Shown here: one piece after another, positions 1,823-63,998 of the stretch
How positions within the stretch are numbered: position 1 is the stretch's first letter
Layout of the letters: each line of letters begins with the position of its first letter
Origin: Betaproteobacteria bacterium SG8_41
Lineage (GTDB): Bacteria; Pseudomonadota; Gammaproteobacteria; Burkholderiales; SG8-41
Assembly: GCA_001303585.1 (NCBI GenBank)
Contig: LJTT01000001.1
Span: 49,088-113,087 of the forward strand
Length of the DNA: 64,000 nucleotides
Direction: 5' to 3'
Position numbers and translations under genes: made by a program
Notes under the pieces: generated by a model
Told to the model about the DNA's origin: nothing
Seen by the model: only the letters and a program-made list of their open reading frames with translations
Databases searched by the model: none

Positions 1823-1878
1823 GGTGACCGGTCATGGGTTACCCGCCACTGGTCACTGCTCACTCGTCACTGGTCACG
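1823..1878. repeat. eight direct 7-nt units, GGTCAC family
   Basis: ggtgacc ggtcatg ggttacc cgccact ggtcact gctcact cgtcact ggtcacg. Covers the recN stop codon (1867-1869). Confidence 0.85.
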
Positions 1879-3531
1879 GCTCTTAAGCATTTCGGCGGCG
1901 TGCTTGCGCGTCGTCTCGGTTATCTTGACTCCCCCCAGCATGCGCGCGATCTCCTCGAGGCGCTGTTCCTCGTCCAGCACCGTCAGCCTGGAGACCACCT
2001 TGCCATTGGCCGTCGTCTTGCTCACCTGCCATTGCTGATCGGCCGAGGCCGCAACTTGCGGCAGGTGCGTGATGCACATCACCTGGTAGGTCTGCCCGAG
2101 CCGCTTGAGCATCTTGCCCACGATCTCCGCGACACGCCCGCCGATACCCGCGTCGACCTCGTCGAAGATGAGGGTCGGCACCTGTGCGACCCGGCTCGTC
2201 ACTGTCTGGATCGCGAGCGAAAGGCGGGAGAGTTCACCGCCCGATGCAACCTTGCCAAGCGGATGCGTTGCCATGCCCTTGTGCGAGGCGACGAGAAACT
2301 CGACATTCTCGAGACCATGGGCAGTCACCTCTGGCAGCTCTGCCAGTGCCACCTCGAACCGGCCGCCCGCCATGGCGAGTGTCTGCATCGCTTGCGTCAC
2401 CTCTCGCGCCAGCTTCGCGGCGGCCTTCCTTCGCGCAGCCGACAGCATTTTGGCCTCCGCCGTGCACGCCGCGTGCGCTTCCTCCTCGAGACGGCGCAGC
2501 GATTCGGCATCACCACCCTCGCCCAGATCGCTCAACCGCGCCTTGGCCGCCGCGAGCCTTGCGGACAAGTCCTCGGGCGGGATTCGATACTTGCGCGCCG
2601 CAGAATGGATGGTATCGAGCCGGTGCTCGATCTCGCGCAACCGCTGCGGATCGAGCTCAAGGCGCTCGCCGTAACGGCGCAGGCTGTAAAGCGCCTCCTG
2701 TAGCTGGATTTGCGCCGGCTCCAGCACATCGAGGATCTCGCGCAGCCGACCGTCGTGTTCAATGAGGGCGTTGAGGCGGTTGATGACGCCGTTCAGTTGC
2801 GCGATACACGAGTTCTCCGCCTCCGACAGTGCTTCGGTGCCAGCCTGGGCGGCCTCGATCAGGCTCGCCGCATGCGCGAGCCGCGCATGCTCAGCCGCGA
2901 GCTCTATCCACTCGCCGTCAGCCAGATGCAACGCCTCGAGCTCGCGCACCTGCCATTCAAGCTGTTCGCGCTCCGCAGCAAACGCGGCGGCATTGGTCTC
3001 GAATGCGATACGGTCTTCCTGTCGCTTCTGCCAAGCCCGGTACCGCTCTCTCACCTTGGCGGCGCTCTGCGCGAGCCCGCCGTAGGCGTCGAGCAACTCC
3101 CGCTGTGCCGCCGTCCGCAGCAGCGACTGATGCTGATGCTGTCCGTGAATGTCCACGAGGAATTCGCCGAGCTCGCGCAGCTGCGCGAGCGTTACGGGCC
3201 GACCATTGACGAAGCCCCGTGAGCGCCCCGACGCTTCGACGACGCGCCGCATCAGGCACACATCCTCATCGCCGGAGAGATCGTTTTCCGCCAACCAGTG
3301 CCCCGCCTGCCGGTGGCCTGCCGTATCGAACTCGGCGCTGATGTCGGCACGCTCGGCGCCACTGCGCACCGCGATCGCCTCGGCTCGCTCGCCCAGCACC
3401 AGCGCCAGCGCATCGATCAGGATCGACTTGCCCGCCCCGGTTTCGCCCGTGAGCACCGTGAAACCGGAGGAAAATTCCAGTTCCATGCGGTCCACGATGA
3501 CGAAATCGCGGATACTCAGGCTGCGCAGCAT
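1867..3531 (-). CDS. recN: DNA repair protein RecN
   Basis: MLRSLSIRDFVIVDRMELEFSSGFTVLTGETGAGKSILIDAL (Walker A), long coiled-coil middle, C-terminal SGGELSRLSLAIQ signature. ATG at 3531 chosen over the track start at 3606. Confidence 0.92.
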   Translation of the reverse strand: MLRSLSIRDFVIVDRMELEFSSGFTVLTGETGAGKSILIDALALVLGERAEAIAVRSGAERADISAEFDTAGHRQAGHWLAENDLSGDEDVCLMRRVVEASGRSRGFVNGRPVTLAQLRELGEFLVDIHGQHQHQSLLRTAAQRELLDAYGGLAQSAAKVRERYRAWQKRQEDRIAFETNAAAFAAEREQLEWQVRELEALHLADGEWIELAAEHARLAHAASLIEAAQAGTEALSEAENSCIAQLNGVINRLNALIEHDGRLREILDVLEPAQIQLQEALYSLRRYGERLELDPQRLREIEHRLDTIHSAARKYRIPPEDLSARLAAAKARLSDLGEGGDAESLRRLEEEAHAACTAEAKMLSAARRKAAAKLAREVTQAMQTLAMAGGRFEVALAELPEVTAHGLENVEFLVASHKGMATHPLGKVASGGELSRLSLAIQTVTSRVAQVPTLIFDEVDAGIGGRVAEIVGKMLKRLGQTYQVMCITHLPQVAASADQQWQVSKTTANGKVVSRLTVLDEEQRLEEIARMLGGVKITETTRKHAAEMLKSRDQ

Positions 3532-3539
3532 GAGAAAAC

Positions 3540-3634
3540 GGTGACTGGCGACCGGTGCCCGGTGACTGGACAAAGCGCAAAGAAACAGAAGTGGCTCACG
3601 GAGCACCCGTCACGGGTCACAGGTCACTGGTCAC
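3540..3634. repeat. inverted pair of 4+4 heptads, GGTCAC family, with a 39-nt centre
   Basis: Left arm ggtgact ggcgacc ggtgccc ggtgact (3540-3567); right arm ccgtcac gggtcac aggtcac tggtcac (3607-3634). Lies between the recN start and the nadK stop. Confidence 0.9.
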
Positions 3635-3637
3635 GCT

Positions 3638-4507
3638 CTATTCTCTGTTCCAGTTGAGCTTCTCCCGCAACATACTGTAATAGCTGTGCCCGACGGGATG
3701 GAGCAGGTGGATCGCATGGTCATAGCGTCGCACTACCACGCGGTCGCCTTCGCGCAGCTCAAAACGGGAGTGGCTGTCGAAGTGCGCCTGCGCGTCGCCC
3801 ACCCCTCGCGCGACGATGTCCACCGTGCAGTCGCTGCTGATCACGATGGGACGGTTAGAGAGTGTATGGGGCGAGACCGGGACCAGCGCCATGACGGACA
3901 GCGAAGGGTGCACGATCGGGCCGCCTGCGGACAGCGCGTAGGCCGTCGAACCCGTTGGCGTCGCGACGATCAACCCGTCTCCACGCTGGCTGTAGATGAA
4001 CTGGCCGTCGATGTGGACGTCGAGATCGAGCATGTTCCCCTTCACGCCTTTGCTCACCACGACTTCGTTGAAGGCGAGAACGTCGAAGAGCGTCTCCTCG
4101 CCGCGAAGGCCCTGGCCGCCGAGGAGCATGCGCGGCTCGGTCACGAACTTGCCGTCCAGCACATCGCCGATGGTGTCGAACATCGTATCGATCGAGATGT
4201 CCGTGAGGAAGCCCAGTCGGCCCTGGTTCACCCCGACCAGCGCGACGTCGTACGGCGCAAGGATGCGCGCAATGTTGAGCATCGTCCCGTCACCGCCAAT
4301 CACGATCGCGAGGTCAGCTTCCCGGCCGAGTTCTTCCAGTGTGTGAACCCGTTGCTTGACCGGCCCCAGATGCTTGGCAGTGAGCGCGTCGATCAGCACG
4401 GTGACCTCGCGCTTTTCCAGAAACTGCGCCAATTTGAGCACTGACTCGGCGACCTCGGGGCTCCGGTATTTCCCGATCACCGCGACGGTCTGGAAAGATG
4501 ATTTCAT
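3638..4507 (-). CDS. nadK: NAD kinase
   Basis: MKSSFQTVAVIGKY..., GGDGTMLN motif, about 290 aa. ATG at 4507; the track extension to 4627 runs through repeat DNA. Confidence 0.9.
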   Translation of the reverse strand: MKSSFQTVAVIGKYRSPEVAESVLKLAQFLEKREVTVLIDALTAKHLGPVKQRVHTLEELGREADLAIVIGGDGTMLNIARILAPYDVALVGVNQGRLGFLTDISIDTMFDTIGDVLDGKFVTEPRMLLGGQGLRGEETLFDVLAFNEVVVSKGVKGNMLDLDVHIDGQFIYSQRGDGLIVATPTGSTAYALSAGGPIVHPSLSVMALVPVSPHTLSNRPIVISSDCTVDIVARGVGDAQAHFDSHSRFELREGDRVVVRRYDHAIHLLHPVGHSYYSMLREKLNWNRE

Positions 4508-4530
4508 GGCGGCATTAGACCACAAAACCC

Positions 4531-4669
4531 CGTGGCCAGTGACCGGCGACCCGTGGGTGGAGAGACCCCGATGAAAGCCGCGTTCCCCGTTAGAATCACG
4601 CCCGACGGCTCGCCCCTCATCGGTCACCCGTTACTGGTCACGGGTAACGGGTCACGGGTCACGGGTCAC
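4531..4669. repeat. inverted heptad arms (4 + 7 units), GGTCAC family
   Basis: Left arm cgtggcc agtgacc ggcgacc cgtgggt (4531-4558); right arm cggtcac ccgttac tggtcac gggtaac gggtcac gggtcac gggtcac (4621-4669). Lies in the nadK/hrcA divergent spacer. Confidence 0.9.
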
Positions 4670-4690
4670 GGTTTTTAGTAGAATAACACC

Positions 4691-5722
4691 ATGGCAGACG
4701 CACCCGTTTTGAACGAACGAGCCCAGCTCCTGCTGAAGACGCTGGTCGAACGCTACGTCGCGGAGGGTCAGCCGGTGGGCTCGCGTGCTTTGTCAAAGTT
4801 CTCCGGTCTCGATCTGAGCCCCGCGAGCATCCGCAACATCATGTCGGACCTCGAGGAAATGGGCTTCATCGCGAGCCCGCATACATCGGCCGGCCGGGTT
4901 CCGACCGCGCGCGGATACCGGTTCTTCGTGGATACGCTGCTTACCATCAAGCCGCTCGACCGGATGGAAGTCCATCAGCTCGAGGAGCAGCTCGACACCG
5001 AGAACCGGCAGCGACTCGTGACATCTGCTTCGCACCTCCTTTCCGAGTTGACGCATTTTGCTGGAGTGGTGCGGACACCACGCCGCAACTCCGGGTTTCG
5101 CCACATCGAGTTCCTGCGTCTCTCGGAAAGCCGCATCCTGCTCATCATCGTCACACCGGAAGGCGACGTGCAAAACCGCATCCTGCACACCGACAGGCCG
5201 TTTGCCCCGTCGGAGCTGACGGAAGCTGCCAATATTCTCAACCAGCACTACGCGGGCCTCACCTTCACCGAAATCCGTCACCGGATCCGCGATGAGCTGA
5301 GGCAGCTGACCGAGGACATGACGCAGTTGATGACGGCCGCCCTGGAAGCGGGAAGCCGTGCCGAAACAGAATCCTCGGAGGACGTCGTGATCTCGGGCGA
5401 GAGTAACCTGCTCGATTCGCAGGACCTCTCTTCCAACATGTCCAATCTGCGCAGGCTCTTCGAGCTCTTCGACCGCAAGACCGGCCTGCTGCAGCTGCTC
5501 GACGTATCGAGCCGCGCCCAGGGAGTCCAGATTTTCATCGGTGGCGAATCCGGCGTGGCGCCGCTCGACGAGTGCAGCGTTATCGCGGCTCCCTACACCG
5601 TGGATGGCCAGGTGGTCGGCACTGTCGGCGTCATCGGCCCGACGCGCATGGCTTACGAGCGCGTGATACCCCTGGTGGATATCACCGCGAAACTCCTCAC
5701 CACCGTGCTTACGCAGCGCTGA
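4691..5722 (+). CDS. hrcA: heat-inducible transcription repressor HrcA
   Basis: N-terminal winged helix [30 protein letters not shown], 343 aa, next to heat-shock genes. Confidence 0.9.
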
Positions 5723-5734
5723 ACTTCGCGTTCG

Positions 5735-5824
5735 TTCCAGGTTCAAGGTTCCATGTTCAAGGTTCGATGCCCTGGAAGCCTTCCTTGAACTTTGAACATT
5801 AAACCCGGAACATTGAACCGTGAA
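5735..5824. repeat. inverted heptad arms, GGTTCAA family
   Basis: Left arm ttccagg ttcaagg ttccatg ttcaagg ttcgatg (5735-5769); right arm cctggaa ... ccttgaa ctttgaa cattaaa cccggaa cattgaa ccgtgaa (5771-5824). The hemH GTG (5820) is in the last unit. Confidence 0.85.
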
Positions 5825-6905
5825 CCCAGAACCTCCCTACGCCCACGGGACCGAGCCTCGAATCGGCGTTCTGCTCGTCAACCTGGGCACACCGGACGCG
5901 CCGAACGCCAGCGCGGTGCGCACCTACCTTCGGGAGTTCCTTTCCGACCCGAGAGTCGTCGAAATTCCGCGCATTGTATGGTGGCCGATCCTGCATGGCT
6001 TCGTTCTCACAACGCGGCCGAGGGGATCGGCCGAACGCTATGCCCAGGTGTGGATGAGCGACGGCTCGCCGCTCAAGGTTCACACCGAACGGCAGACCAA
6101 GCTCGTGCGCGGTTATCTCGGCGATCGCGCCCGACAGCTGCCCATCGTGCTCGACTATGCGATGCGCTACGGCTCACCATCGATCGCGGAAAAGATGCGC
6201 GAGCTGAAGCTTCATCATTGCAACCGCATTCTGGTCGTGCCGCTCTACCCCCAGTACTCCGCCAGCACCACGGCCTCCGTCGTCGATGCCGCCACCGCCT
6301 GCCTTGCGTCCATGCGCAACCAGCCGGCGCTGCGGACGGTACGCAGCTTTCACGACCATCCCGGCTACATCGGGGCGCTGGCACAAAGCGTGCGCGACTA
6401 CTGGATGAGAAACCACCGGCCGGATGTGCTTCTCATGAGTTTTCACGGGGTGCCGCGCTACACGCTCGAGAAGGGGGACCCCTACCACTGTGAGTGCCAG
6501 AAGACGGGGCGCTTGCTCGCGGAGGCGCTGTCGCTGCGCCCGGAGCAGTACCGGATCACCTTCCAGTCGCGCTTCGGCAGGACGGAGTGGCTGAAGCCCT
6601 ACACCGCTGACGTCCTGAAGGAGCTCGGCAAACAAGGGCTCGGGCGCGTCGACGTCATGTGCCCAGGCTTCGTCAGCGATTGCCTGGAAACGCTCGAGGA
6701 AATCGCGATCGAGGGAAAGACGATCTTCCTCAAGTCCGGCGGGCGGGAGTTCCATCACATCCCTTGCCTCAACGAGCGCGACGACTGGATCCACACGCTC
6801 ACCGACATTGTGTTGCGAAATCTCCTTGGCTGGGAACACAAGGTTTCAAGCGAGCAGCTGGAGAAATCGCGCCTGAGCGCGCTTGCCATGGGTGCGGAAA
6901 GCTAG
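5820..6905 (+). CDS. hemH: ferrochelatase
   Basis: [16 protein letters not shown]-terminal motif and length 361 aa. The GTG start at 5820 lies inside a repeat arm, and there is no upstream ATG. Confidence 0.9.
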
Positions 6906-9059: not shown

Positions 9060-9662
9060 ATGATGCAGGAAACACCCGATGCCCGCACTGCTGATTCAAG
9101 CCAGCAGGAAGGACCGGCCGGCGAGCTGACCGAGCAGCCCGGTACGCCCGAGACGCCGCAGCAAGCACCCGAGCCCTCTGCTCCCGAAACAATGCCGAGC
9201 CTCGAGGTGCTGCTCAAACGCGCCGAACTTGCAGCGCAGGAGCACCATGACGCCTGGCTGCGCGCGAAAGCAGAAGCAGACAACATCCGTAAACGCGCGC
9301 AGTCTGAGATCGCCAGTGCTCACAAGTTCGCCGTGGAGAGCTTCGCGACGGAATTGCTGGCAGTAAAGGATAGCCTCGAAGCGGCGCTTGCCGTGGAAAA
9401 TGCGTCCGTCGAGAGCATGAAAAGCGGCGTCGAGCTGACGCTGAAGCAGCTCTTGAGCGTGTTCGAGAAATTCAGCCTCACGGAAATCGACCCGGCGGGC
9501 CAGAAATTCGATCCTCACCGGCACCAGGCGATCAGCGTCGTCGAGGGCGAAGCAGAGCCCAACACGGTGGTTCAGGTGCTTCAGAAAGGCTGCCTGCTGC
9601 ATGACCGGGTGATTCGTCCTGCCCTGGTGACGGTGTCGAAGACCAGGAGCGTTGAAAGTTGA
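9060..9662 (+). CDS. grpE: nucleotide exchange factor GrpE
   Basis: ATG at 9060 preceded by [36 protein letters not shown] is a typical GrpE core. Confidence 0.9.
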
Positions 9663-11673: not shown

Positions 11674-11681
11674 CGATTAAC

Positions 11682-11819
11682 CACAGAGGCACAGAGGCAC
11701 TGAAGAGCTCACAGAGTCTTGACGGCGGTAACGCAGCCGGGCAGGGGTAGAACGCCCCTGCCTTGCGCTTTTTCGCATTGAAGAATCGCGTCTTGCTCCG
11801 GCGCTCCGTGCCTGTGTGG
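11682..11819. repeat. 8-nt unit array with an inverted partner flanking the dnaK terminator
   Basis: cacagagg cacagagg cactgaag agctcaca gag (11682-11716); inverted partner ctccgtgcctgtgtgg (11804-11819). Confidence 0.7.
11741..11773 (+). terminator. hairpin plus T-run between dnaK and dnaJ (terminator/attenuator)
   Basis: GCAGGGG-tagaacg-CCCCTGC (11741-11761), then cttgcgcTTTTT (T-run 11769-11773). Confidence 0.5.
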
Positions 11820-11831
11820 TAGAGAAGTCGA

Positions 11832-22957: not shown

Positions 22958-23078
22958 CAGATAAACACAGATAAACGCAGATTCAACCATGCAAAAGACC
23001 AAGAGCGAGAGCAAAACCGTTTCGCCGCCGATGGACGCCGATAGGCGGAAACTAGGCGCGGCTCGATTCACGATTCAC
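22958..23078. repeat. 10-nt unit arrays plus GATTCAC heptads
   Basis: cagataaaca cagataaacg cagattcaac (22958-22987); ccgatggacg ccgataggcg (23028-23047); gattcac gattcac (23065-23078). Confidence 0.75.
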
Positions 23079-23132
23079 GACGGCAAGGGCTGCCGATGGG
23101 TATCAGCATGTTCGTAGTAGACCCTGCGCGAA

Positions 23133-28412: not shown

Positions 28413-28484
28413 TTCGTGATGCGCGTCAGGTAAACGGTAAAGCCTGCTCTCACGCCGCCACCCGTCACTCATCACGCATAACGA

Positions 28485-29207
28485 ATGACGCACAGCCTCT
28501 TCATTTCAGACCTGCACCTGGCCCCCGGGCGTCCCGCTACCACTGACTCCTTCTTCGGGTTCTTGAAGGGACCAGCCGCGCAGGCCGAAGCGCTGTACAT
28601 CCTTGGCGATTTGTTCGAGTACTGGATCGGAGACGATGATCTGTCTGACCCGTTCAACGCCTCGGTTGCCGAAGCGCTGGGCGCGCTCTCCCGGCGGGGC
28701 GTGGCCGTCAACCTGATGCAGGGAAATCGCGACGTTCTGATGGGTGACGAGTTTGCCGGCCGTTGTGGCGGACGCCTGCTGGCAGATCCCGCAATCCTCG
28801 ACCTGTACGGCAAACCCACGCTCGTCATGCACGGTGACACGCTGTGCACCGACGACGTCGAGTACATGAAATGGCGCGCCAAGGCCCGCGACCCCGCCTT
28901 CCAGGCTAGATTCCTGGGGCAGCCGATCCCTGAGCGCAAGCGGCTGATCGTCGGCATGCGCCAGAAGAGCGAGGAGCACAAGCAGGGGCAATCTCCGGCC
29001 ATCATGGATGTTGCGAAGCCAACGGTGGAGCGGATTTTGCGTGACTTCAACTATCCGCGTCTCATCCATGGTCATACTCACCGCCCGGCGCGCCACGTGC
29101 ACCGGATCGACGGCCATGACTGCGAGCGCTGGGTGCTGACCGACTGGTACGGAAGTGGCGGATACTTGCGCTGCGACGCCAGCGGCTGCACCGTGACCGC
29201 ACTATGA
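28485..29207 (+). CDS. lpxH: UDP-2,3-diacylglucosamine diphosphatase
   Basis: LFISDLHL metallophosphoesterase start, GNRD and HGD motifs, 240 aa, in the ppiB-lpxH context. Confidence 0.88.
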   Translation: MTHSLFISDLHLAPGRPATTDSFFGFLKGPAAQAEALYILGDLFEYWIGDDDLSDPFNASVAEALGALSRRGVAVNLMQGNRDVLMGDEFAGRCGGRLLADPAILDLYGKPTLVMHGDTLCTDDVEYMKWRAKARDPAFQARFLGQPIPERKRLIVGMRQKSEEHKQGQSPAIMDVAKPTVERILRDFNYPRLIHGHTHRPARHVHRIDGHDCERWVLTDWYGSGGYLRCDASGCTVTAL

Positions 29208-31318: not shown

Positions 31319-31353
31319 AAAAACAAAAACCCGATCAGCTCGCGCCGACCGGG
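31319..31353 (-). terminator. intrinsic terminator/attenuator inside the metZ leader
   Basis: Minus-sense CCCGGTC-ggcgcgagct-GATCGGG followed by TTTTTGTTTTT. It ends 12 nt before the metZ ATG, so metZ transcripts must read through it. Confidence 0.6.
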
Positions 31354-31358
31354 TTCGC

Positions 31359-31413
31359 CGTCGCTTTAGCTGAATTTCTAACGCGCCCGCAAGCTGACCT
31401 TCAAATCGGCGCG
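31359..31413 (-). ncRNA. candidate SAM-II-like riboswitch aptamer in the metZ leader
   Basis: Minus-sense CGCGCC-GAUUUGAAGGUCAGCUUGCG-GGCGCG-UUAGAAAUUCAGCUAAAGCG. This gives a 6-bp P1, a U-rich L1, loop GCUU complementary to the 3' AAAGC (H-type pseudoknot), and CGAUUU/GCUUGC/AAAGC words as I recall for SAM-II. Confidence 0.35.
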
Positions 31414-31419
31414 ATTGGA

Positions 31420-31448
31420 AAGTTACTCTGCGCCTGAGGCATTGTCAA
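31420..31448 (-). promoter_or_regulatory. sigma-70 type promoter for the metZ leader
   Basis: Minus-sense TTGACA (31448-31443), a 17-nt spacer, then TAACTT (31425-31420). Confidence 0.5.
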
Positions 31449-31479
31449 CATCAGACGCTCGCGCGCCCAGTTACGAGAG

Positions 31480-31572
31480 CGGTAAGTGGTGAGCGATTAA
31501 TGGCGGGCGGGACAGGCCGTAGCGCTTTAAACTCGGACTGATTCAGCCTGACTACCGCTCACGAATCACGCC
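31480..31572. repeat. weak inverted heptad arms, GTGAG/CTCAC-GATTA/AATCA type
   Basis: Left arm cggtaag tggtgag cgattaa tggcggg (31480-31507); right arm contains ctcacga atcacgc (31558-31571), within ctaccgctcacgaatcacgc (31553-31572). Confidence 0.45.
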
Positions 31573-31594
31573 GTTGTCGAGCGACCGATAGCGG

Positions 31595-34263: not shown

Positions 34264-35586
34264 TCACCGGGGTTCCGCCACCGAGGCCCCCGCCGCGCGT
34301 CTGCGCTCAAGCAAGGCCATAACCGCTGCTACGGTGTAGAACGACCCGAACACGACGATTCTATCATTTTCCGTCGCCATATCACAGGCTTGCGCGTACG
34401 CGTCGACCACGCTGGCGCACGGCGTGCAGCCCGCTATGTCCGCGGCGGCCAGGGCACGTTCCAGTTCCCTCGAGTCCCCCCCGCGGGGGCCGGACAATCC
34501 AGCGACATACCAATGCGAGATCTGCGGCGCCACGGCCGACGCCACGCCCGCAATGTCCTTGTCGCGAAGCATCGCGAACACCGCATATGTGCGGCCAGCG
34601 CACTCCATCGCAGCAAGATTGTCCGCCAGCGCGCGCGCCGCATGCACGTTATGCGCCACGTCGAGAATTACGGCCGGGCGCCCCGGAATGACCTGGAACC
34701 GGCCGGGCACCTCCACCCGCAACAATCCTTGCCTGATATCGTTCATGGTCACCGGCAAACTGTCGCGCAGGCACTCGAGCGCCGTAATCGCTGCCGCCGC
34801 GTTGTCCAGCTGGCACACACCGCGCAACGCGGGGTGCGGCAGTGCGTTGCGCGGTCCTCTCGGTCCCCAATATTGCCAGTGCCTGCCCTGCACTCTGAAG
34901 CCAAAATCCCGCCCGATCCGCAAGAGCCCTGCGCCAATGTCTGCGGCGTGACGGACGAGACGCTCCGGCGGGGACGCGTCCGAGCAAACCGCTGGCCGGC
35001 CCGCCCGGAAAATGCCCGCTTTTTCTGCCCCGATCACCTCACGATCCGCGCCAAGGTAATCAACATGGTCGATATCGACCGCCGTTACCACTGCGCAATC
35101 GGCATCGAAGGCATTGACCGCGTCGAGGCGCCCCCCGAGCCCGACCTCGAGGACCGCCACGTCCACCCGCTGCTCGATAAACAGCCACAGGGCCACCAGC
35201 GTGCCGTACTCGAAATACGTCAGTGCAACATTGCCACGCATCCGCTCCACCTCGTCGAATGCCCTGACAAGCGCGGCGTCGGCCAGCTCCATTCCCCCGA
35301 CGCGCACCCGCTCGTTATAGCGCAGGAAGTGCGGTGAGGTATAGCAGCCGACGCGGTAGCCGGCGTGGCGCAAGACCGACTCCAGCATCGCGCAGGTGGA
35401 GCCCTTGCCATTGGTGCCGCCGACCGTGATGATGGGAAAACTCGGCTCGAGAGAAAGTCGCTCCTTGACGCGCCCGACCCGCTCGAGACCTAGCGCGATC
35501 GTCTGCGGATGCAGGCGCTCGATATACGCCAGCCATTCGGCTAGCGTTTCAGGTTCAAGGTTCAAGGTTCTAGGTTCTAGGTTCAA
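34264..35586 (-). CDS. folC: bifunctional folylpolyglutamate synthase/dihydrofolate synthase
   Basis: LAEWLAYIERLHPQTIALGLERV, P-loop TVGGTNGKGST. The start must be TTG 35586 or TTG 35565, both inside the heptad array; there is no ATG or GTG before the P-loop. Confidence 0.88.
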   Translation of the reverse strand: MNLEPRTLNLEPETLAEWLAYIERLHPQTIALGLERVGRVKERLSLEPSFPIITVGGTNGKGSTCAMLESVLRHAGYRVGCYTSPHFLRYNERVRVGGMELADAALVRAFDEVERMRGNVALTYFEYGTLVALWLFIEQRVDVAVLEVGLGGRLDAVNAFDADCAVVTAVDIDHVDYLGADREVIGAEKAGIFRAGRPAVCSDASPPERLVRHAADIGAGLLRIGRDFGFRVQGRHWQYWGPRGPRNALPHPALRGVCQLDNAAAAITALECLRDSLPVTMNDIRQGLLRVEVPGRFQVIPGRPAVILDVAHNVHAARALADNLAAMECAGRTYAVFAMLRDKDIAGVASAVAPQISHWYVAGLSGPRGGDSRELERALAAADIAGCTPCASVVDAYAQACDMATENDRIVVFGSFYTVAAVMALLERRRAAGASVAEPR

Positions 35587-35697
35587 GGTTCAAGGTTCAA
35601 GGTTCAAGGTTCAAGGTTCAAGGTTCAAGGTTCAAGGTCGACCTTCAAACCCGCGCTTCGAACTTTGAACCTGGACCCTTGAACTTTGAACCCGGAC
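35551..35697. repeat. largest array: 12 heptads AGGTTCA/AGGTTCT plus 1 degenerate unit, directly abutting an 8-unit arm of opposite orientation
   Basis: 35551-35634 is 12 exact-period units (two AGGTTCT variants at units 3-4); unit 13 is aggtcga. The second arm is ccttcaa acccgcg cttcgaa ctttgaa cctggac ccttgaa ctttgaa cccggac (35642-35697). The centre is the palindrome AAGGTCGACCTT (35634-35645). Confidence 0.95.
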
Positions 35698-35700
35698 CCG

Positions 35701-37382: not shown

Positions 37383-37390
37383 GTCAAATA

Positions 37391-37508
37391 CGGTTACCAG
37401 TGACCGGTGACCGGTGACCGGAACGCCCAATGACGGGTGTCCGGTCCGCCGTTAGCAGAAACACCCATATCCCAGACTTTGTTAACGGGTCACGGGTCAC
37501 GGGTCACG
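37391..37508. repeat. inverted heptad arms, GGTCAC family
   Basis: Left arm cggttac cagtgac cggtgac cggtgac (37391-37418); right arm gttaacg ggtcacg ggtcacg ggtcacg (37481-37508). Lies between the trpB stop and the trpA start. Confidence 0.9.
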
Positions 37509-37513
37509 GGCTG

Positions 37514-45273: not shown

Positions 45274-45280
45274 ATACCCT

Positions 45281-45388
45281 CCGTGAACCGTGATTGGTGA
45301 TTGATGAATCGGAAAGATTGCCTCTAACGGCGCGACCGATTCCGGCCGGTAACTTCGCGATTCACGATTTACGATTCACGTTTTACGA
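45281..45388. repeat. inverted heptad arms, GTGAAT/ATTCAC family
   Basis: Left arm ccgtgaa ccgtgat tggtgat tgatgaa (45281-45308); right arm ttcgcga ttcacga tttacga ttcacgt tttacga (45354-45388). The leuD stop (45383-45385) is inside the right arm. Confidence 0.85.
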
Positions 45389-46021
45389 GAACAACCACGG
45401 CTGCCGTTCGCGATGTGCCGCCTCGAAAGCTCTGATCTTGTCAGCGTGGCCAAGCGTCAGGCCGATTTCGTCGAGCCCGTTCAGCAGGCAATGCTTGTTG
45501 AACGGATCGATCTCGAACCTGAAGCTCTCGCCACCAGGCGTGCTCACCGCCTGCTGCTCCAGATCGATCGCGACCCGGTAACCCGGTGTCGCCTGGGCCT
45601 CCCGCAACAGTCGATCGACGATCTTCGCATCGAGCCGGATCAGCAATAACCCGTTTTTCAGGCTGTTGTTGTAAAAGATGTCGGCAAAACTGGGCGCGAT
45701 TACTGCCTGAAACCCGTACTGGAGCAGCGCCCACGGCGCATGCTCGCGCGAGGAGCCGCAGCCGAAATTTTCGCGCGCGAGCAGGACGGTTGCGCCCTGG
45801 TAGCGCGGTTGGTTGAGGACAAAATCCTTGTTGAGCGGCCGCTTGGAATGATCCATTCCCGGTTCGCCGTGGTCGAGATAGCGCCACTCGTCGAACAGAT
45901 TCGGGCCGTAGCCCGTGCGCTTGATCGACTTCAGGTATTGCTTGGGGATGATCGCATCCGTATCCACGTTGGCGCGGTCCATCGGCGCCACCAGACCCTC
46001 GCGTCGGACAAATTTTTCCAT
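45383..46021 (-). CDS. leuD: 3-isopropylmalate dehydratase small subunit
   Basis: 212 aa, [20 protein letters not shown] motif. The stop codon lies inside a repeat arm. Confidence 0.93.
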
Positions 46022-46038: not shown

Positions 46039-47407
46039 TTATTTCATGGTACGAACATCGACAAAATGCCCGGCGACCGCCGCCGCCGCCGCCATCGCGG
46101 GACTAACAAGATGTGTTCTGCCGCCGGCACCCTGCCGACCCTCGAAATTGCGATTCGAAGTGGATGCGCAACGCTCGCCCGGCGAGAGCTGGTCGTCGTT
46201 CATGCCCAGACACATAGAGCAGCCCGGCTGGCGCCACTCGAATCCGGCTGCGGTGAAGATCTTGTCGAGCCCTTCTTGTTCAGCCTGCTGCTTGACCAGG
46301 CCCGATCCGGGGACGACGATTGCCAGCTTGATATTCGAAGCCACCCGTTTGTCCTTCACGACCTGGGCCGCGGCACGCAGATCCTCGATGCGCGAGTTGG
46401 TGCAGGCGCCAATGAATATCTTGTCGGGCTTGATCTGGGTAATGGGCGTGTTGGGCTTGAGGTCCATGTACTTGAGTGCGCGCTCCATCCACTCGCGCTG
46501 CACGGGATCCTTCTCCTGCGCAGGGTCGGGCACCTTTCCGTCAACGGTCGTCACCATCTGAGGCGATGTGCCCCAGCTCACCTGCGGCTGGATCTGGGCC
46601 GCGTCGAGCGTGACCACCTTGTCGAAAGTCGCATCGGGATCGCTAACGAGCGTGCGCCAGTAGGCAAGCGCCTTGTCCCACATCGCGCCCGCGGGCGCCA
46701 TGGGACGCCCCTTCACGTACTCGATCGTCGTGTCGTCCACTGCAACCATGCCGGCCCGCGCGCCCGCCTCGATCGACATGTTGCAGACGGTCATGCGGCC
46801 TTCCATTGAAAGCGCGCGGATGGCGCTCCCGGCAAACTCGATGCTGTAACCGGTGCCACCTGCGGTACCGATTTTTCCGATGATCGCGAGAATGATGTCT
46901 TTCGCCGTGACGCCGAGGCCGAGCGCTCCCTCCACCTCGACTTTCATGGTCTTCGTCTTTTTCATCATCAGGCACTGGGTCGCAAGCACGTGCTCGACCT
47001 CGCTCGTGCCGATACCGAAGGCAAGACAACCGAAGGCGCCGTGCGTGCTCGTATGCGAGTCGCCGCACACGACTGTCATGCCCGGAAGCGTCGCGCCCTG
47101 CTCCGGCCCGATCACGTGCACGATCCCTTGCTGCCTATCGAGAAACGGAAAATAGACTTTGGCACCGAATTCCTTGATGTTCTTGTCGAGCGTCTCGACC
47201 TGCAGTCGCGAAACCGGATCGGTGATGCCGCCGAACCGAATCCACGCGCCACGGCTTGCGCCCCGCGAGCTTCAGCCCCTCGTAGGCCTGCGGACTGGTT
47301 ACCTCGTGAACGAGGTGGCGGTCGATGTAAATAAGTGCGGAGCCATCGGGCGCTTGGTGCACGAGATGGCTATCCCATAATTTGTCGTAAAGCGTCCGGG
47401 CTGTCAT
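46039..47407 (-). pseudogene. leuC: 3-isopropylmalate dehydratase large subunit, disrupted (internal deletion plus frameshift near 47236)
   Basis: The N-terminal 57 aa ([57 protein letters not shown]) are in one frame. The rest ([47 protein letters not shown]...) is in another. The conserved DHN-containing segment between them is missing. Confidence 0.8.
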
Positions 47408-47515
47408 TGATCGCCTAACGTCATAAAAACGTTGAATTATCACACATTCCATTTCCAATCGGAACACACAGGGCTGCAATTGCCGTTCTCGGCTGGCCCG
47501 CTACCCGGTGCCGGC

Positions 47516-52488: not shown

Positions 52489-52494
52489 CCGGGA

Positions 52495-52624
52495 CTGTTC
52501 CGGGTTTCAAGTTCGATGTTCAACGCTGCATGTTCAATGTCCAAAACCAGACCGTCTGACCCGGACAACCTTTAACCTTGAACGTTGAACTTTGAACTTT
52601 GAACCTTGAACATGGAACCTGGAA
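52495..52624. repeat. inverted heptad arms, GTTCAA family
   Basis: Left arm ctgttcc gggtttc aagttcg atgttca acgctgc atgttca atgtcca (52495-52543); right arm cctttaa ccttgaa cgttgaa ctttgaa ctttgaa ccttgaa catggaa cctggaa (52569-52624). The folA ATG is 6 nt downstream. Confidence 0.85.
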
Positions 52625-52629
52625 CTTCG

Positions 52630-55057: not shown

Positions 55058-55079
55058 CAACGTTCTCCTTGAGACCTAG

Positions 55080-55156
55080 GTTTCGGGTACATCCAGCGCA
55101 GCCACATCGGCTGCCCACCAGCATGCTCTTGCTGTTGTCATCTTCCCCTCCGAAAC
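55080..55156 (-). promoter_or_regulatory. structured 5' leader of the decarboxylase gene
   Basis: Minus-sense GUUUCGG ... CCGAAAC closing stem encloses hairpins CAGCA-agagca-UGCUG and GCAGCC-gaugu-GGCUGC. It ends 10 nt before the AAGGAG ribosome-binding site. Confidence 0.35.
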
Positions 55157-55195
55157 ATCGTCAGCGCGCTGCAAAAAAAAGTGAAACTTGCGCGA

Positions 55196-55223
55196 ATTAT
55201 AGGAGTACTACGCTGGATTTCAA
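55196..55223 (-). promoter_or_regulatory. sigma-70 type promoter of the decarboxylase gene
   Basis: Minus-sense TTGAAA (55223-55218), a 16-nt spacer, then TATAAT (55201-55196). Confidence 0.55.
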
Positions 55224-55612
55224 GAGTTTTACCGGAATTTTTCCCCGCTTTCGTCCATGCGGTCGCGCACGCGCAACAGCTGAAGCGGCGGCGCGGAGCC
55301 GCCAACGCCTCGCGTGAAGGCGACGAGCGAGTTGTAGCGCGTTGCTCGCGCGCCGAGCGCGGCCGCAACCGTGACGCGCGTCACGCACGCAGTAAGGTTT
55401 GCGAAAGCCGCGGTGCGGGTGCGGGCGAGCAGACTCGCTCTTCGCGGCCTCTCCCCCAGCGCAAGCACTCGATGGACGCTCCGACGGAGGCCGCGCTACG
55501 TGGCCTCAACAATTCTCGATCGCTGAGCAGCGCAAGGGCGCACGCGCCAGCGGCGCCCGCGCGCTTGGTTTCAGTGGATGGGGACGACCGTGGAGCAAGG
55601 CGCCCCGGCCGG

Positions 55613-59593: not shown

Positions 59594-59678
59594 CGAAAAT
59601 AGGGGAAATGGCGAAACGCGAGGCAAGCGCGGGCGCGGCTTTCGGGTTTACCATTTACCATTCACGATTCAAGAATCG
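59591..59678. repeat. inverted heptad arms, CATTTAC/ATTCAC type (left arm weak)
   Basis: Right arm gggttta ccattta ccattca cgattca agaatcg (59644-59678); left arm gaaatgg cgaaacg within 59591-59625. Lies between the metG stop and the cyclase gene start. Confidence 0.6.
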
Positions 59679-59689
59679 CGGATAAGAGC

Positions 59690-61379: not shown

Positions 61380-62576
61380 ATGGCAGACGCCCGTAAATTC
61401 GGCCGCTATGAAGTGGTCGCCGAGCTCGGCAAGGGGGCGATGGGCACCGTCTACCGCGCCCGCGACCCCATGCTTAACCGGACAGTCGCGATCAAGACCG
61501 TCAACATGGACCTCGATCGCGACGAGGTTGCGGATTACGAAGCGCGGTTCTATCAGGAGGCGCGCGCCGCGGGCGGACTGAACCACCCCAACATCGTCAC
61601 CATTTACGACATCGGCAAGAGCGGGACCGTCGCTTACATGGCAATGGAGCTTCTCGAGGGCAACGAGCTCCGCACGATAATGGCGCAAGGCAAGGCGCTG
61701 AACGTCGGCCAGGCGATCGACATCGCAGCGCAGGCCGCAGAGGGTCTCGGCTACGCCCATGACCATGACGTCGTCCACCGCGACATCAAGCCGGCAAATC
61801 TCATGATCGTGCGTGACGGGCTGGTAAAGATCACGGACTTTGGCATTGCACGCATGCGCTCGGCCGAGGTGCGCACCCAGACCGGGGTTGTGCTGGGCTC
61901 GCCTCGCTACATGTCTCCCGAGCAGGTGGTCGGCAAACGCGCCGAGCCGCGCTCGGACATCTTCTCGCTGGGCGTGATTCTCTACGAGATGGTCACGGGC
62001 AAGCCACCGTTCACGGGCGACGACGTGAGCGCGATCATGTTCCAGATCCTCAATTTCGTGCCGCCGCCTCCGAGCACCGTGAACCCCGATGCGCCGGAAA
62101 TGCTGGACTTCATAGTCGCCAAGGCCCTTGCCAAATCGCCGGCGGACCGTTATGCCAGCGCGCGCGAATTGGCAAGCGATCTGCGCGAATGCCGCCAGCA
62201 AGTCCCGGCCCGGGCGTCTTCAAGTCTGATCCTGAAGCCGCTACAGCCCAGCTTCGAACCGGAATCCGCCAACGAGCTTCTGCTTCGCACCGCCCCGCAC
62301 ACGCGTCGCTCCGACGCGGAAACCTCCGTGCCCGAGCCGGCCCCGACGCTGGGGGTCTCGAAAGCCTTCGATTCCATGGCGGCGACCTCGCGTCTCGCAA
62401 TTCAGGCCGGCGTAAGCGGCGAGTTCCCCGGCGTCTCGACGCCGATTCCATCCAACCTGGGACAGCGAGGGTTCAGCCGGGGGGAAAGCCAAGGCTGGAG
62501 CCAGCGGGACAAGCTTATCTTCACGGCTAGCGTGATCGGCGCCGCGGTTCTGGGCGCCTTCATCGTTTTTGCTTGA
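61380..62576 (+). CDS. Hanks-type serine/threonine protein kinase, C-terminally tail-anchored
   Basis: GKGAMGTVY, VAIK, HRDIKPANL, DFG, SPE motifs. The single transmembrane segment is at the extreme C-terminus (LIFTASVIGAAVLGAFIVFA). Confidence 0.88.
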   Translation: MADARKFGRYEVVAELGKGAMGTVYRARDPMLNRTVAIKTVNMDLDRDEVADYEARFYQEARAAGGLNHPNIVTIYDIGKSGTVAYMAMELLEGNELRTIMAQGKALNVGQAIDIAAQAAEGLGYAHDHDVVHRDIKPANLMIVRDGLVKITDFGIARMRSAEVRTQTGVVLGSPRYMSPEQVVGKRAEPRSDIFSLGVILYEMVTGKPPFTGDDVSAIMFQILNFVPPPPSTVNPDAPEMLDFIVAKALAKSPADRYASARELASDLRECRQQVPARASSSLILKPLQPSFEPESANELLLRTAPHTRRSDAETSVPEPAPTLGVSKAFDSMAATSRLAIQAGVSGEFPGVSTPIPSNLGQRGFSRGESQGWSQRDKLIFTASVIGAAVLGAFIVFA

Positions 62577-62580
62577 ACGC

Positions 62581-62809
62581 CGTGATTGGCGAATGGTGAG
62601 TGGCGAGTGGACCGAATCCACACGCTAGAAGGTACCTCAACCACGACACAGCCGCGGAACCACACGGAAGCACGCGGAAGCACAGAAAACTTGTTATTGC
62701 TTTGCAGTCCTTCAGGTTCAGGTTTTCGTCCGTGTCATTCCGTGGTAAAGGATCTTGCGGTCTTCCTCGCTTTTTGAGACGGGTTCTACTCACCGTTCAC
62801 CATTCACGC
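62581..62809. repeat. nested composite: outer heptad arms enclosing inner 10-nt unit arms
   Basis: Outer left arm cgtgatt ggcgaat ggtgagt ggcgagt (62581-62608); inner array cacacggaag cacgcggaag cacagaaaac (62661-62690); inner inverted partner cgtccgtgtcattccgtgg (62728-62746); outer right arm ctcaccg ttcacca ttcacgc (62789-62809). Confidence 0.8.
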
Positions 62810-62820
62810 AGTCCTGTCGG

Positions 62821-63930
62821 ATGAAAATCGAAAGCGTCGAGGCGATTGCCATCGCGATTCCGCTCAAACGGAATTTCGGCGGCAGCACCTACGACGTGCT
62901 CAAGCGCTGCACCGTCATCACGCGTATCCGCACCGACGAAGGCCTCGTGAGCGAGATTTACAACGGGGATAACCGTGCCCACGGCGGCGGGATCGTCCGC
63001 CTGATCGAGGACGAGCTTGCGCCGCGCGTGAAAGGGCTTGACGTATTCGAAGTCGAGCGCGCCTGGCAGGCCATGTTCGATCTCAGCCATACCAGTAATG
63101 ATCGCAAGACGTTGCTCGAGGCCATCGCCTGCGTCGATTGCGCGCTGTGGGACCTCGCAGGCAAGGCCCTCGGCAAAAGCGTTTGCGCGATGCTGGGCGG
63201 CGCGCGCGATCGCCTGCCCATCATCTCGATCGGCGGCTACTACATGGAAGGCAAGACCCTTGCCGACATCGGCCGCGAGATGGAGCAGTACCGCGAGGCC
63301 GGCATGGCAGGCTGCAAGTTCAAGGTAGGCGGGCTCGCGCCGGAGGACGATTTCCAGCGCGTCGAGGCCGCGCGCAGTGCGGCAGGACCCAGTTTCGTGC
63401 TTGCGGTCGATGCGAATCGCGGCTGGGACCTCCGGGACGCCACACGTTTTGCGCAGCTCGTTGAGCCGCTCGATATCTGCTGGTTCGAGGAACCGTGCCA
63501 CTGGTACGACGACGCGGCGATGATGGCGCGCCTGCGCCAGACAACGCGCATACCGGTCACGGCGGGGCAAAGCGAGATCACCGTCCATGCGGTGCGCCGG
63601 CTCATCGACGCCAATGCAGTGGACTATTTGAACTACGACGCCTCGGAAGGCGGCGGGGTCACCGACTGGCGCCGGGCCGCGGCGCTGTGCCAGGCCGCGG
63701 GAGTCGGGATGGCGCACCACGAGGAGCCGCAAATCTCGCAGCATTTGCTTGGCGGCGTGCCGCATGGGACCTACATCGAGTGCTTTGCCCATCCCGACCG
63801 CGACCCGGTGTGGCAGGCGCTATGGGCAAACCGCCCGCCGATCCGCGACGGGATGATGGAAATATCGAAGGACCCCGGGTTCGGAGTTCAGCTCGACTCG
63901 AAGATGGTGGAGCGCTATCGCGTCGCCTGA
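62821..63930 (+). CDS. enolase superfamily enzyme (mandelate racemase/muconate lactonizing family)
   Basis: ATG at 62821 (MKIESVEAIAIAIPL). LAVDAN, WFEEPCHWY and TAGQSE motifs. Paralogous in layout to 18129..19280. Confidence 0.8.
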   Translation: MKIESVEAIAIAIPLKRNFGGSTYDVLKRCTVITRIRTDEGLVSEIYNGDNRAHGGGIVRLIEDELAPRVKGLDVFEVERAWQAMFDLSHTSNDRKTLLEAIACVDCALWDLAGKALGKSVCAMLGGARDRLPIISIGGYYMEGKTLADIGREMEQYREAGMAGCKFKVGGLAPEDDFQRVEAARSAAGPSFVLAVDANRGWDLRDATRFAQLVEPLDICWFEEPCHWYDDAAMMARLRQTTRIPVTAGQSEITVHAVRRLIDANAVDYLNYDASEGGGVTDWRRAAALCQAAGVGMAHHEEPQISQHLLGGVPHGTYIECFAHPDRDPVWQALWANRPPIRDGMMEISKDPGFGVQLDSKMVERYRVA

Positions 63931-63935
63931 ACGAT

Positions 63936-63998
63936 CGTGAATCGTAAATCGTGAATCGGAATTTAGCCGCAGATGAACGCAGATACACGCAGATTTAC
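63936..63998. repeat. GTGAAT heptads followed by a 10-nt unit array (runs to the window edge)
   Basis: cgtgaat cgtaaat cgtgaat (63936-63956), then gcagatgaac gcagatacac gcagatttac (63969-63998). Confidence 0.8.

Follow-up and report, generated by a model that had tools for sequence, protein, structure and literature searches.

In Xanthomonas, 183-186 arrays of a GGGAATC-type heptamer have been described per genome, intergenic in position and made up of 2-26 units (Rehm et al. 2015, PLoS One; PMC4692102). Housekeeping genes are the neighbours of these arrays, most of which are transcribed; at a given spacer the arrays of Xcc and Xac can differ, and 70-75 array pairs per genome are convergent and capable of forming stem-loops (PMC4692102). 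A literature search on GGGAATC returned nothing later than this report. The present analysis concerns arrays of 7-nt units, commonly paired in opposite orientation, in the spacers of a stretch of 64,000 nucleotides from Betaproteobacteria bacterium SG8_41 (assembly GCA_001303585.1, contig LJTT01000001.1, positions 49,088 to 113,087 of the forward strand), which as a whole is here called the window.

Heptanucleotides were reported by Mrazek, Guo and Shah (2007, PNAS) as the most abundant class among the long simple sequence repeats (SSRs) of prokaryotes; as summarised in PMC4679880, that work found them concentrated in certain groups, Burkholderia, Xanthomonas and cyanobacteria among them, and proposed that they originate by slippage of a polymerase with a 7-nt footprint. 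The TAACTGA repeats of Beggiatoaceae, Cyanobacteria and Bacteroidetes (MacGregor 2015; PMC4679880) are tandem intergenic heptamers that often lie directly upstream of start codons. Among 170 TAACTGA sets in BOGUAY one is an indirect repeat and the others are direct, and S1, Csp and CsrA have been proposed, not demonstrated, as readers of heptamers (PMC4679880). The short tandemly repeated repetitive (STRR) sequences of cyanobacteria (Mazel 1990; PMC4679880) are likewise direct intergenic heptamers, with the units CCCCAGT, TTGGTCA and CAACAGT. In Geobacter metallireducens, sites of five tandem heptanucleotides MTYCTGA and, separately, paired sites on opposite strands, each with three short repeats TCTCCGTS[Y] in tandem, have been annotated as putative global regulator sites (Aklujkar et al. 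2009; PMC2700814).

The arrays of the window belong to a known kind, already represented by the GGGAATC-type inverted pairs that Xanthomonas carries and by heptanucleotide long SSRs. We take them, with a probability of about 0.6, to be SSR palindromes of heptameric units, evolving in place; at gene boundaries they would be, at most, generic hairpins in the manner of repetitive extragenic palindromic (REP) sequences. They have been shown not to be discrete mobile elements, as they keep to fixed spacers, pass down vertically and are reshaped where they lie. An earlier note on this DNA had considered the hairpins unusual and unassignable to a class; heptameric intergenic SSRs in inverted pairs were, however, already known from Xanthomonas (PMC4692102). 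Distinctive here are the presence of several non-G-rich unit families per genome and comparative evidence of co-evolving arms.

Arrays, slippage and descent

Gene calls were transferred from identical contigs, and intergenic DNA amounts to 6.7 kb, or 10.5% of the window. Period-7 arrays were sought with Tandem Repeats Finder (TRF) and with our own lag scan, which together yield 16 intergenic arrays of 2.3-12.6 copies. All ten strong period-7 arrays of the lag scan are intergenic, despite the small share of such DNA, and other periods gave almost nothing except 14 (twice 7) and three 10-mers. TRF places period-7 arrays at 1847-77, 3609-34, 4636-71, 5734-65, 5785-5832, 23064-80, 35551-638 (12.6 copies), 35656-99, 37391-421, 37485-510, 45354-88, 52567-625, 59647-62, 62587-610 and 63934-62, and arrays of 8- or 10-nt units at 11682-700, 22958-82, 62653-83 and 63968-94. 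Dinucleotide shuffles of the spacers are expected to hold 0.01 arrays at a strict threshold, where 9 were observed, and 0.25 at a loose threshold, where 15 were observed; an origin in chance or composition is thereby ruled out. The 57 kb of coding sequence contain three weak arrays, one of which (62790-62807) turns intergenic once the gene start is set at ATG 62821.

These results bear out much of the earlier note, which had listed the arrays from the sequence alone. TRF period-7 arrays lie at or inside nearly all of its array coordinates, its 8- and 10-nt arrays were recovered, and its 7-nt period and three unit families (GGTCACN, GGTTCAA and GATTCAC) were correct. The arrays did not prove equally common in coding sequence, which is nearly empty of them, or in shuffles. 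The claim that almost every spacer longer than about 60 nt is built of 7-nt units was overstated, as a period-7 array is present in 12 (14 at the loose threshold) of 38-39 such spacers. The listed array at 23064-80 has only 2.4 copies, and a weak locus at 28414-28490 had been overlooked.

Proteins of the window are also encoded on contigs of several metagenomes and in a closed genome of 3.32 Mb (GCA_020349925.1 / CP070703.1), which is 99.4% identical to the window over leuC-asd. A literature search on the genome accession returned no paper. Contigs from other samples and assemblers are 99.7-99.96% identical to the window through the spacers, and the arrays are therefore not an assembly artefact, a concern that the earlier note had raised. 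The idea that they are artefact or compositional chance draws on the short-read contigs that break within arrays (three of them, L003, L005 and L006, start at 4642-4650), but it is left with next to no probability by the shuffles and by the reproduction of the arrays in at least five independent assemblies from different samples, including the closed genome. The same three contigs come from different runs and end in the GGTCACG array upstream of hrcA, arrays of this type breaking de Bruijn assemblies.

Between strains, differences in the arrays amount to exactly 14 nt, or two units. Contig L004 carries GGTCACGGGTCGCC inserted at 4636 of the window (+14 nt), which restores complementarity to the left arm, and L011 and L012 lack TGAACCTTGAACCT at 35592-35605 (-14 nt). 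Each of the two changes is bounded by direct repeats of the unit, as expected of slippage, and the unequal copy numbers of paired arms (12.6 against 6 in the window; 9.4 against 2.3 in the relative L095) indicate that arms expand independently. Since strains vary in how many units they carry upstream of hrcA and at the start of folC, the arrays might be thought of as contingency (phase-variation) loci, in which unit number switches the expression of a neighbour. Such switching is very unlikely, given that the neighbours are housekeeping genes (recN, hrcA, hemH, folC, trpA, leuB, folA) and that the changes fall outside reading frames; the same argument has been made for Xanthomonas (PMC4692102).

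Across 160 related loci the gene order recN-nadK-hrcA-hemH is kept. Among GTDB species representatives, the nearest are metagenome-assembled genomes of Betaproteobacteria/Burkholderiales with HrcA identities to the window of at most 78%; the metagenome contig L095 stands at 92% and the relative L097 at 81%. Relatives with HrcA identities of 63-92% have heptad hairpins in the same spacers, made of different units: GGTGAAC/GTTCAC, GGTGGAT/CCACTCA, GGGTAAT/CATCACC, GTGAAAC/GTTTCAC, GTGAGGA/TCCTCAC, GAGGCGA/TCGCCTC and GGGATGA/TCATCCC. In the recN/nadK spacer, orthologous hairpins with different units occur in 11 relatives. The nadK/hrcA and hrcA/hemH hairpins of the window, L095 and L097 align through both arms and loop, and are thus orthologous rather than independent insertions; at hrcA/hemH the window and L095 share the same unit family, with 87% column identity. 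Within a locus, the 5' unit and the reverse complement of the 3' unit agree at 5.9-6.0 of 7 positions, whereas units agree at 3.5-4.25 of 7 positions across orthologous loci; agreement of about 6/7 within loci against about 4/7 between orthologues indicates that the arms co-evolve. Comparison of orthologous spacers in relatives, which the earlier note had suggested, therefore reveals the same spacers with other units, that is, vertical inheritance with drift in place.

Among relatives with HrcA identity of at least 75%, arrays are present in 8 of 14 recN/nadK spacers and in 6 of 13 hrcA/hemH spacers, and they are rare beyond that limit. The recN/nadK spacer measures about 23 nt in array-free relatives versus about 110 nt where arrays are present. 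Lineages rich in arrays are those of the window, L095, L097, L098, L102, L015, L020 and L022, and array-poor sisters are L096, L099, L016, L018, L105 and L021. The near sisters L096 and L099 are almost array-free, and presence or absence across near sisters marks the arrays as a trait of lineages and not of single loci. One pair of units, GGGATGA/TCATCCC, recurs in several genomes of the clade, mostly downstream of hemH (L015 12199-12297, L102 6253-6363, L096 at about 9631-9650, L097 4875-4906 and L022 706-788), and appears to be an older, shared unit family; the other units are mostly genome-specific.

Slipped-strand mispairing adds whole units to each arm and removes them, as seen in the two-unit strain differences, the unequal arm lengths and runs of identical variant units. 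The two inverted 7-nt arrays can fold into imperfect stem-loops of 20-50 bp, whether as RNA or as single-stranded or supercoiled DNA. Because the arms stay complementary while the units drift, orthologous loci in relatives end with different units. Complementarity may be kept through templated copying between arms or through selection on the hairpin, and the 5'-arm units may have been amplified from sequence at the intercistronic junction.

Hairpins of the window

The window is 63% GC and its genes include fur, recN, nadK, hrcA, hemH, prpD, grpE-dnaK-dnaJ, cysS, metZ, purF, cvpA, folC, accD, trpA/B/F, truA, fimV, asd, leuB/D/C, aroC, pepA, thyA, folA, lysA, dcd, mrp and metG. The loci are given below with fold z-scores, which compare each folded interval with shuffles of the same sequence, using RNA parameters with DNA parameters as a cross-check.

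1823..1878, convergent hyp199-recN spacer: GGTGACC, then TCACNNN x5, overlapping the recN stop (1867-1869); TRF 1847-1877, period 7, 4.4 copies; hairpin not significant (1811-1880, z -0.6).
3540..3634, recN/nadK spacer: 5' arm GGTGACN x4 at 3540-3566, loop of 34 nt, 3' arm GTCACNN x4 at 3601-3634; the arms begin 0-2 nt past the nadK stop and finish 9 nt short of the recN ATG (3532-3637, z -2.9).
4531..4671, divergent nadK/hrcA spacer: 5' arm 4531-4565, loop of 56 nt, 3' arm GGTCACG/GGTAACG x7 at 4622-4671; both arms upstream of conserved -10-like boxes; GGGTCAC run at 4642-4665 a potential G-quadruplex motif (4525-4674, z -3.0).
5734..5832, hrcA/hemH spacer: 5' arm GGTTCAA/GGTTCCA at 5734-5771, loop of 13 nt, 3' arm TTGAACN at 5785-5832, running across the hemH GTG at 5820 (5723-5832, z -4.9 RNA, -5.0 DNA).
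11680..11822, dnaK/dnaJ spacer: 8-nt units (CACAGAGG x2.4) at 11680-11712 pair with 11800-11822; the arms enclose a hairpin that is GC-rich, has a T-run and resembles a terminator (11674-11823, z -4.6).
22958..23080, nupC/cysS spacer: 10-mers CAGATAAACR x2.5 at 22958-22982 and heptads CGATTCA x2.4 at 23064-23080; no significant hairpin (z +0.9).
28414..28490, ppiB/metallophosphatase spacer: weak heptad hairpin, GTGATGC/GGTAAAC with GTCACTC/ATCACGC (28413-84, z -0.9).
31480..31572, near the purF stop: degenerate heptad-like inverted pair, GGTAAGT GGTGAGC with CGCTCAC GAATCAC; the weakest of the listed loci (31470-31585, DNA z -1.5).
35551..35700, folC/accD spacer, + strand: AGGTTCA x12.6 at 35551-35641, then TTGAACN/CTGGACC x6 at 35652-35700; TRF score 162 (35551-35700, z -6.2 RNA, -5.1 DNA).
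37391..37511, trpA/trpB spacer: GGTGACC x4 at 37391-37424, loop of 57 nt, GGGTCAC x3.7 at 37482-37511 (37383-37513, z -3.4).
45281..45388, leuB/leuD spacer: GTGAACC/GTGATTG/ATGAATC at 45281-45312, loop of 39 nt, CGATTCA/CGATTTA x5 at 45352-45388, the 3' arm overlapping the leuD stop (45274-45390, z -2.1; -5.2 with flanks).
52497..52625, thyA/folA spacer: GTTCAAN at 52497-52538, loop of 26 nt, TTGAACN x8.4 at 52565-52625; the arms finish 4 nt short of the folA ATG (52489-52629, z -5.1).
59595..59678, metG/hyp422 spacer: purine-rich 5' arm GAAAATA GGGGAAA TGGCGAA; 3' arm GGTTTAC CATTTAC CATTCAC GATTCAA (59594-59689, z -2.9).
62582..62808, protein kinase/enolase-superfamily spacer: 5' arm GTGATTG GCGAATG GTGAGTG GCGAGTG at 62582-62611; insert of 177 nt at 62611-62788 with 10-mers CGCGGAAGCA x3 at 62653-62683; 3' arm CTCACCG TTCACCA TTCACGC at 62789-62808 (62577-62815, z -4.7).
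63934..63994, locus cut by the window end: ATCGTGA x4.3 at 63934-63962, then 10-mers CGCAGATAAA x2.7 at 63968-63994.

The inverted-arm hairpins proposed in the earlier note thus hold at about 10 of 15 loci (z -2 to -6), with DNA parameters giving a similar picture, while those at 1811-1880, 28413-84 and 31470-31585 fold no better than shuffles. Stems contain 5-6 bp per unit and are broken by one or two mismatches at variable unit positions; in the trpA/trpB stem there is one G-G mismatch per heptad. The folC/accD array, read in the mRNA sense, begins 1 nt past the accD stop, and its final units, by translation, encode the folC TTG start and first codons (MNLEP). The leuB/leuD spacer is identical in six other assemblies, including the closed CP070703.1. 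The dnaK/dnaJ spacer has a degenerate homologue in L095, and in the relative L098 heptad arms surround the same kind of inner hairpin. The 177-nt insert folds into a long stem of its own and may represent a small RNA, or else another type of repeat lying inside the heptad one. For the adjacent enolase-superfamily (MR_MLE) gene, a start at ATG 62821 fits the Pfam alignment and keeps the 3' heptad arm intergenic, and the mechanically called open reading frame (ORF) start at TTG 62755 is probably wrong.

Formation of G-quadruplexes, as proposed for the heptamers of Xanthomonas and Nostoc, might be considered as the basis of the elements, since the (GGGTCAC)n runs at 4642-4665 and, in the second trpA/trpB arm, at 37487-37510 fit four repeats of G3-N4. 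Four G3 tracts are, however, present in only 2 of 19 arrays; the GGTTCAA, GATTCAC and GGTGACC arrays are unable to form three-tetrad quadruplexes, and relatives have units such as GTGAAAC and AATGATG. A G-quadruplex role is accordingly regarded as extremely unlikely.

A second candidate is a family of palindromes of the type of REP sequences, bacterial interspersed mosaic elements (BIMEs) or REP doublets (REPINs), spread by a REP-associated tyrosine transposase (RAYT; IS200/IS605-type Y1 transposase) encoded elsewhere, the heptads being secondary. The elements are intergenic and palindromic, number about 15 per 64 kb and fall into few families per genome, and several relatives have heptad arms on either side of a small inner hairpin rich in GC. 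Neither a genome-wide consensus palindrome of 20-40 nt nor the 20-35-nt consensus of such elements was found, and there are three or more unrelated unit families. Among the loops, only chance matches of 7-9 nt are common, with no related loop sequences, no common terminus and no GTAG-type end; lacking these, the elements are not REP/BIME sequences or MITEs (miniature inverted-repeat transposable elements) as defined. Moreover, the hairpins are orthologous and drift in place, strain differences reflect slippage and not insertion or excision, and no RAYT gene is present within the 64-kb window of a genome of about 3.3 Mb. Spread by a RAYT is thus distinctly unlikely. The suggestion in the earlier note of a dedicated RAYT-like enzyme or repeat-reading protein gained no positive evidence from the 64 kb available: no genome-wide consensus, conserved termini or shared loops, orthologous hairpins that drift in place, and strain differences of two slipped units.

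The same note could not assign the elements to the REP/BIME, enterobacterial repetitive intergenic consensus (ERIC), Correia or CRISPR classes, and they are indeed none of these. CRISPR arrays have repeats of 23-47 nt with unique spacers, whereas the units here are of 7-10 nt, head to tail and without spacers. MITEs were rejected, as internal sequences are unrelated, orthologous loci align through arms and loop, and strains differ by unit slippage. The cyanobacterial STRR/TAACTGA class was also set aside, the units here being GGTCACN, GGTTCAA and GATTCAC in inverted pairs. A reading of the 5-bp interrupted palindromes (GTNAC, GANTC, TTNAA) as methylation or restriction sites was dropped, because the relatives' units GTGAGGA and GGGATGA contain none of them. 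No known RNA family or tRNA-derived repeat was found. In Rfam, no family matched the elements at gathering score, the sole match in the window being a SAM-II (SAM_alpha, RF00521) riboswitch at 31345-31422 (-; 42 bits), upstream of metZ (O-succinylhomoserine sulfhydrylase family). No intrinsic terminators or sigma-70-like promoters were detected at the four heptad loci scanned (1700-6100), and only the dnaK/dnaJ inner hairpin resembles a terminator.

Polarity, gene boundaries and the weight of the evidence

Polarity was assessed in 38 hairpins from the window and its relatives. The 5' arm is richer in purines in 32 of these (mean 0.69 vs 0.31) and has the more numerous stop codons in 27 hairpins against 6 (p 3e-4); it carries GTGA/TGA, and the 3' arm is pyrimidine-rich. 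Since a palindrome is the same on both strands, such polarity is intrinsic to the element. GTGA is present, on the purine strand, in 36 of 84 units (43%), a stop codon in 63% of units vs 44% of permuted units (P 5e-5), and the base preceding TGA creates a start codon in 53 of 55 cases, although p-values for unit content are optimistic because the units are related by descent. As 7 is not a multiple of 3, stops would fall in all three frames.

The overlaps with gene ends recorded in the earlier note (the recN and leuD stops, hemH GTG, folC TTG and folA ATG) were correct, and arrays do lie, as it stated, between genes in co-directional, convergent and divergent order. In many cases an array sets in right at the stop codon (TGA-GTGACGG, TAG-GGATGAGGGATGA, TAA-TGATGAATGATGAA). 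The ten co-directional spacers of the window are filled by the arms, which start 0-11 nt past the stop and either reach to 0-14 nt from the next start or run over it. The 5' arm thus lies no more than about 10 nt from the upstream stop codon, and the 3' arm stops no more than about 14 nt from a downstream start or convergent stop. Array-free relatives have tight coupling junctions between recN and nadK (AGGGAGTGATG and CCGGTGATCAATG), and the units of the 5' arm look like sequence that may have been amplified from a Shine-Dalgarno motif plus a start/stop overlap (GTGA or ATGA). Where an arm precedes a gene, Shine-Dalgarno pairing is weaker (median -2.9 vs -5.3 kcal/mol, p 0.014), a strong Shine-Dalgarno being present in 1 of 12 such genes vs 40%; this weakness is partly automatic, because the pyrimidine arm occupies the region from -20 to -3.

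REP sequences can protect the 3' ends of mRNA and, when near a stop codon, affect translation termination, and these roles offer the most plausible functional analogy for the hairpins of the window, which may act generically in a REP-like manner at gene boundaries. In co-directional pairs they would set the stop beside the next start at the base of a stem, and they could lend transcripts stability or punctuate them; the hairpin of the divergent nadK/hrcA spacer could act only on DNA.

A more specific proposal is that of a translational device, in which the all-frame stops and the Shine-Dalgarno-like, start-stop units of the 5' arm hold terminating ribosomes while the stem couples genes 100-250 nt apart. 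The arms spanning from stop to next start in the ten co-directional spacers would suit such a device, as would the weak downstream Shine-Dalgarno motifs, the enrichment of stop codons and NTGA overlaps, and the coupling junctions found at the same place in array-free relatives. Yet elements also lie at convergent (1823-1878) and divergent promoter-upstream (4531-4671) sites, where coupling is meaningless, the stems show no G-U bias, the Shine-Dalgarno effect is in part automatic, and the GGTTCAA family has TGA on its 3' arm. On balance the device seems rather unlikely.

Equally, the arrays could be binding sites of a lineage-specific protein or ribonucleoprotein that reads GTGA/TCAC every 7 nt, in DNA or RNA, and for which they, and their polarity, are kept by selection. 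The GTGA core in 36 of the 84 units, spread over many loci and genomes, the fixed polarity, the greater likeness of units within than between genomes and the presence or absence of the trait by whole lineage are all in keeping with a reader of this kind. On the other hand, the window holds no candidate gene, its unannotated ORFs having no nucleic-acid-binding Pfam match; many units lack GTGA (GGTTCAA, GAGGCGA, GGGATGA, AACCCGA), copy numbers and spacings are very variable, common cores may reflect shared descent of units, and no factor has been found for the heptamers of Xanthomonas (PMC4692102) or cyanobacteria (PMC4679880). Selection for binding is considered rather unlikely, and an enzyme or binding protein dedicated to the arrays has no support from the window and stands as a candidate only. 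A wider form of these proposals, also held to be unlikely, is a lineage-specific, genome-wide system, absent from repeat-free sisters, that writes or maintains fixed-polarity, 7-nt-periodic hairpins at gene boundaries, possibly a dedicated heptad-reading protein or nuclease that homogenises units across loci, or possibly a translational punctuation code that replaces Shine-Dalgarno-dependent initiation of the downstream gene. A dedicated reader/writer system or translational punctuation would, if true, be much more interesting than the SSR palindromes favoured here.

Several observations weigh against an explanation by slippage and generic hairpins. A fixed, purine-first polarity is not explained by slippage alone, nor is the GTGA core common to different genomes, and slippage leaves the choice of a 7-nt unit unexplained. 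The three GGTTCAA loci of the window have the opposite polarity and are the main exceptions to it. Units of different loci match at a mean of 4.75/7 positions within a genome vs 4.13/7 between genomes (permutation P < 2e-4), and unit pairs matching at 6/7 or more make up 21% within vs 6% between genomes; this likeness hints at homogenisation or constraint acting in trans, beyond what slippage alone explains. For the Xanthomonas heptamers, no function or regulatory role could be demonstrated (PMC4692102).

The remaining difficulties concern a role of the hairpins as RNA. Under selection at the RNA level an excess of G-U over A-C would be expected among arm mismatches, and none was seen (p 0.48; low power): the sense strand of co-directional spacers holds 123 arm mismatches, of which 22 are G-U, 28 A-C and 73 other, approximately the random 2:2:8. 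In the nadK/hrcA spacer, each of the two ATGs is preceded, at a distance of exactly 6 nt, by a -10-like box (TCTAAT, - strand, 4514-4519, for nadK; TAGAAT, 4679-4684, for hrcA). Every relative has these boxes, whether it carries heptads or not, and no match to a -35 element turned up for either promoter. From the position of the boxes, nadK and hrcA are probably expressed as leaderless mRNAs, which would leave the hairpin, upstream of both boxes, outside both transcripts. The evidence does not favour an RNA-specific constraint. The lack of G-U bias, together with divergent and convergent occurrence, agrees with a strand-symmetric origin in DNA, any role as RNA being secondary and context-dependent.

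In leuC (- strand, about 46039-47500), the window lacks 50 nt at about 47235, bordered by a TCGG direct repeat and present in five other assemblies including CP070703.1; the gene is in consequence frame-shifted in the window only, and the apparent 394-nt spacer at 47122-47515 is leuC coding sequence. A second small frame-shifting deletion peculiar to the window sequence affects pepA (- strand, 51300), where 11 nt (TGATTGGCGAT) are missing that are found in ERZ27279932 contig L014, in which pepA encodes 490 aa. Synteny between CP070703.1 (L175, 966945-977583) and the window breaks inside asd, beyond about 43481 of the window; asd in CP070703.1 is of 230 aa and is followed by DctM/TRAP transporter genes in place of fimV, indicating a rearrangement between close strains. 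The 555 nt between lysA and dcd (55058-55612) are GC-rich, with no called gene and no heptads.

Comparison with known systems

If the arrays are only products of slippage they still matter, because they break short-read assemblies, shift start calls (folC, hemH, MR_MLE 62821) and provide hypervariable strain markers. Polarity, the GTGA/stop core and the weak downstream Shine-Dalgarno are testable leads to a role in punctuating translation or transcripts. As a test-bed the group has advantages over Xanthomonas, namely a graded series of relatives, sisters with and without arrays, and a public closed genome (CP070703.1).

REP, BIME and REPIN elements resemble the hairpins of the window in being abundant intergenic imperfect palindromes at gene boundaries. 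The arms here are, by contrast, microsatellite arrays, with no genome-wide consensus or conserved end, and evolve in place and not by copying. The Geobacter sites share tandem heptanucleotides and paired opposite-strand sites with the window, but their copy number is fixed, each class has a single consensus, the organism is unrelated, and their description includes no comparative or structural analysis. With the STRR and TAACTGA repeats the common ground is tandem heptamers in intergenic DNA; those repeats are nearly always direct, with one fixed unit across phyla and no paired arm. Like the long SSRs of Mrazek et al. (2007), the arrays of the window show whole-unit insertions and deletions between strains that fit an origin by slippage, and their inverted-arm architecture, polarity and locus-level co-evolution do not feature in that work as summarised in PMC4679880.

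The closest resemblance is to the Xanthomonas heptamers. Both have a 7-nt tandem unit with degenerate positions, a bias to non-coding DNA, convergent pairs capable of forming stem-loops, housekeeping neighbours and, at the same spacer, variation in length and sequence among close relatives, and in both the purine-rich strand downstream of an ORF is the coding strand of that ORF. The window unit GTGAATC is one base from GGGAATC. The arrays differ in that the host is an uncultured betaproteobacterium with several unit families per genome instead of one, and in that most units are without a G3 tract, so that the G-quadruplex rationale does not apply. G3 tracts are a property of the Xanthomonas unit and not of the architecture, and the same architecture without them argues that formation of G-quadruplexes is not its essence. 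Co-evolution of the arms, absent from the Xanthomonas report (PMC4692102), is evident in the arrays described here.

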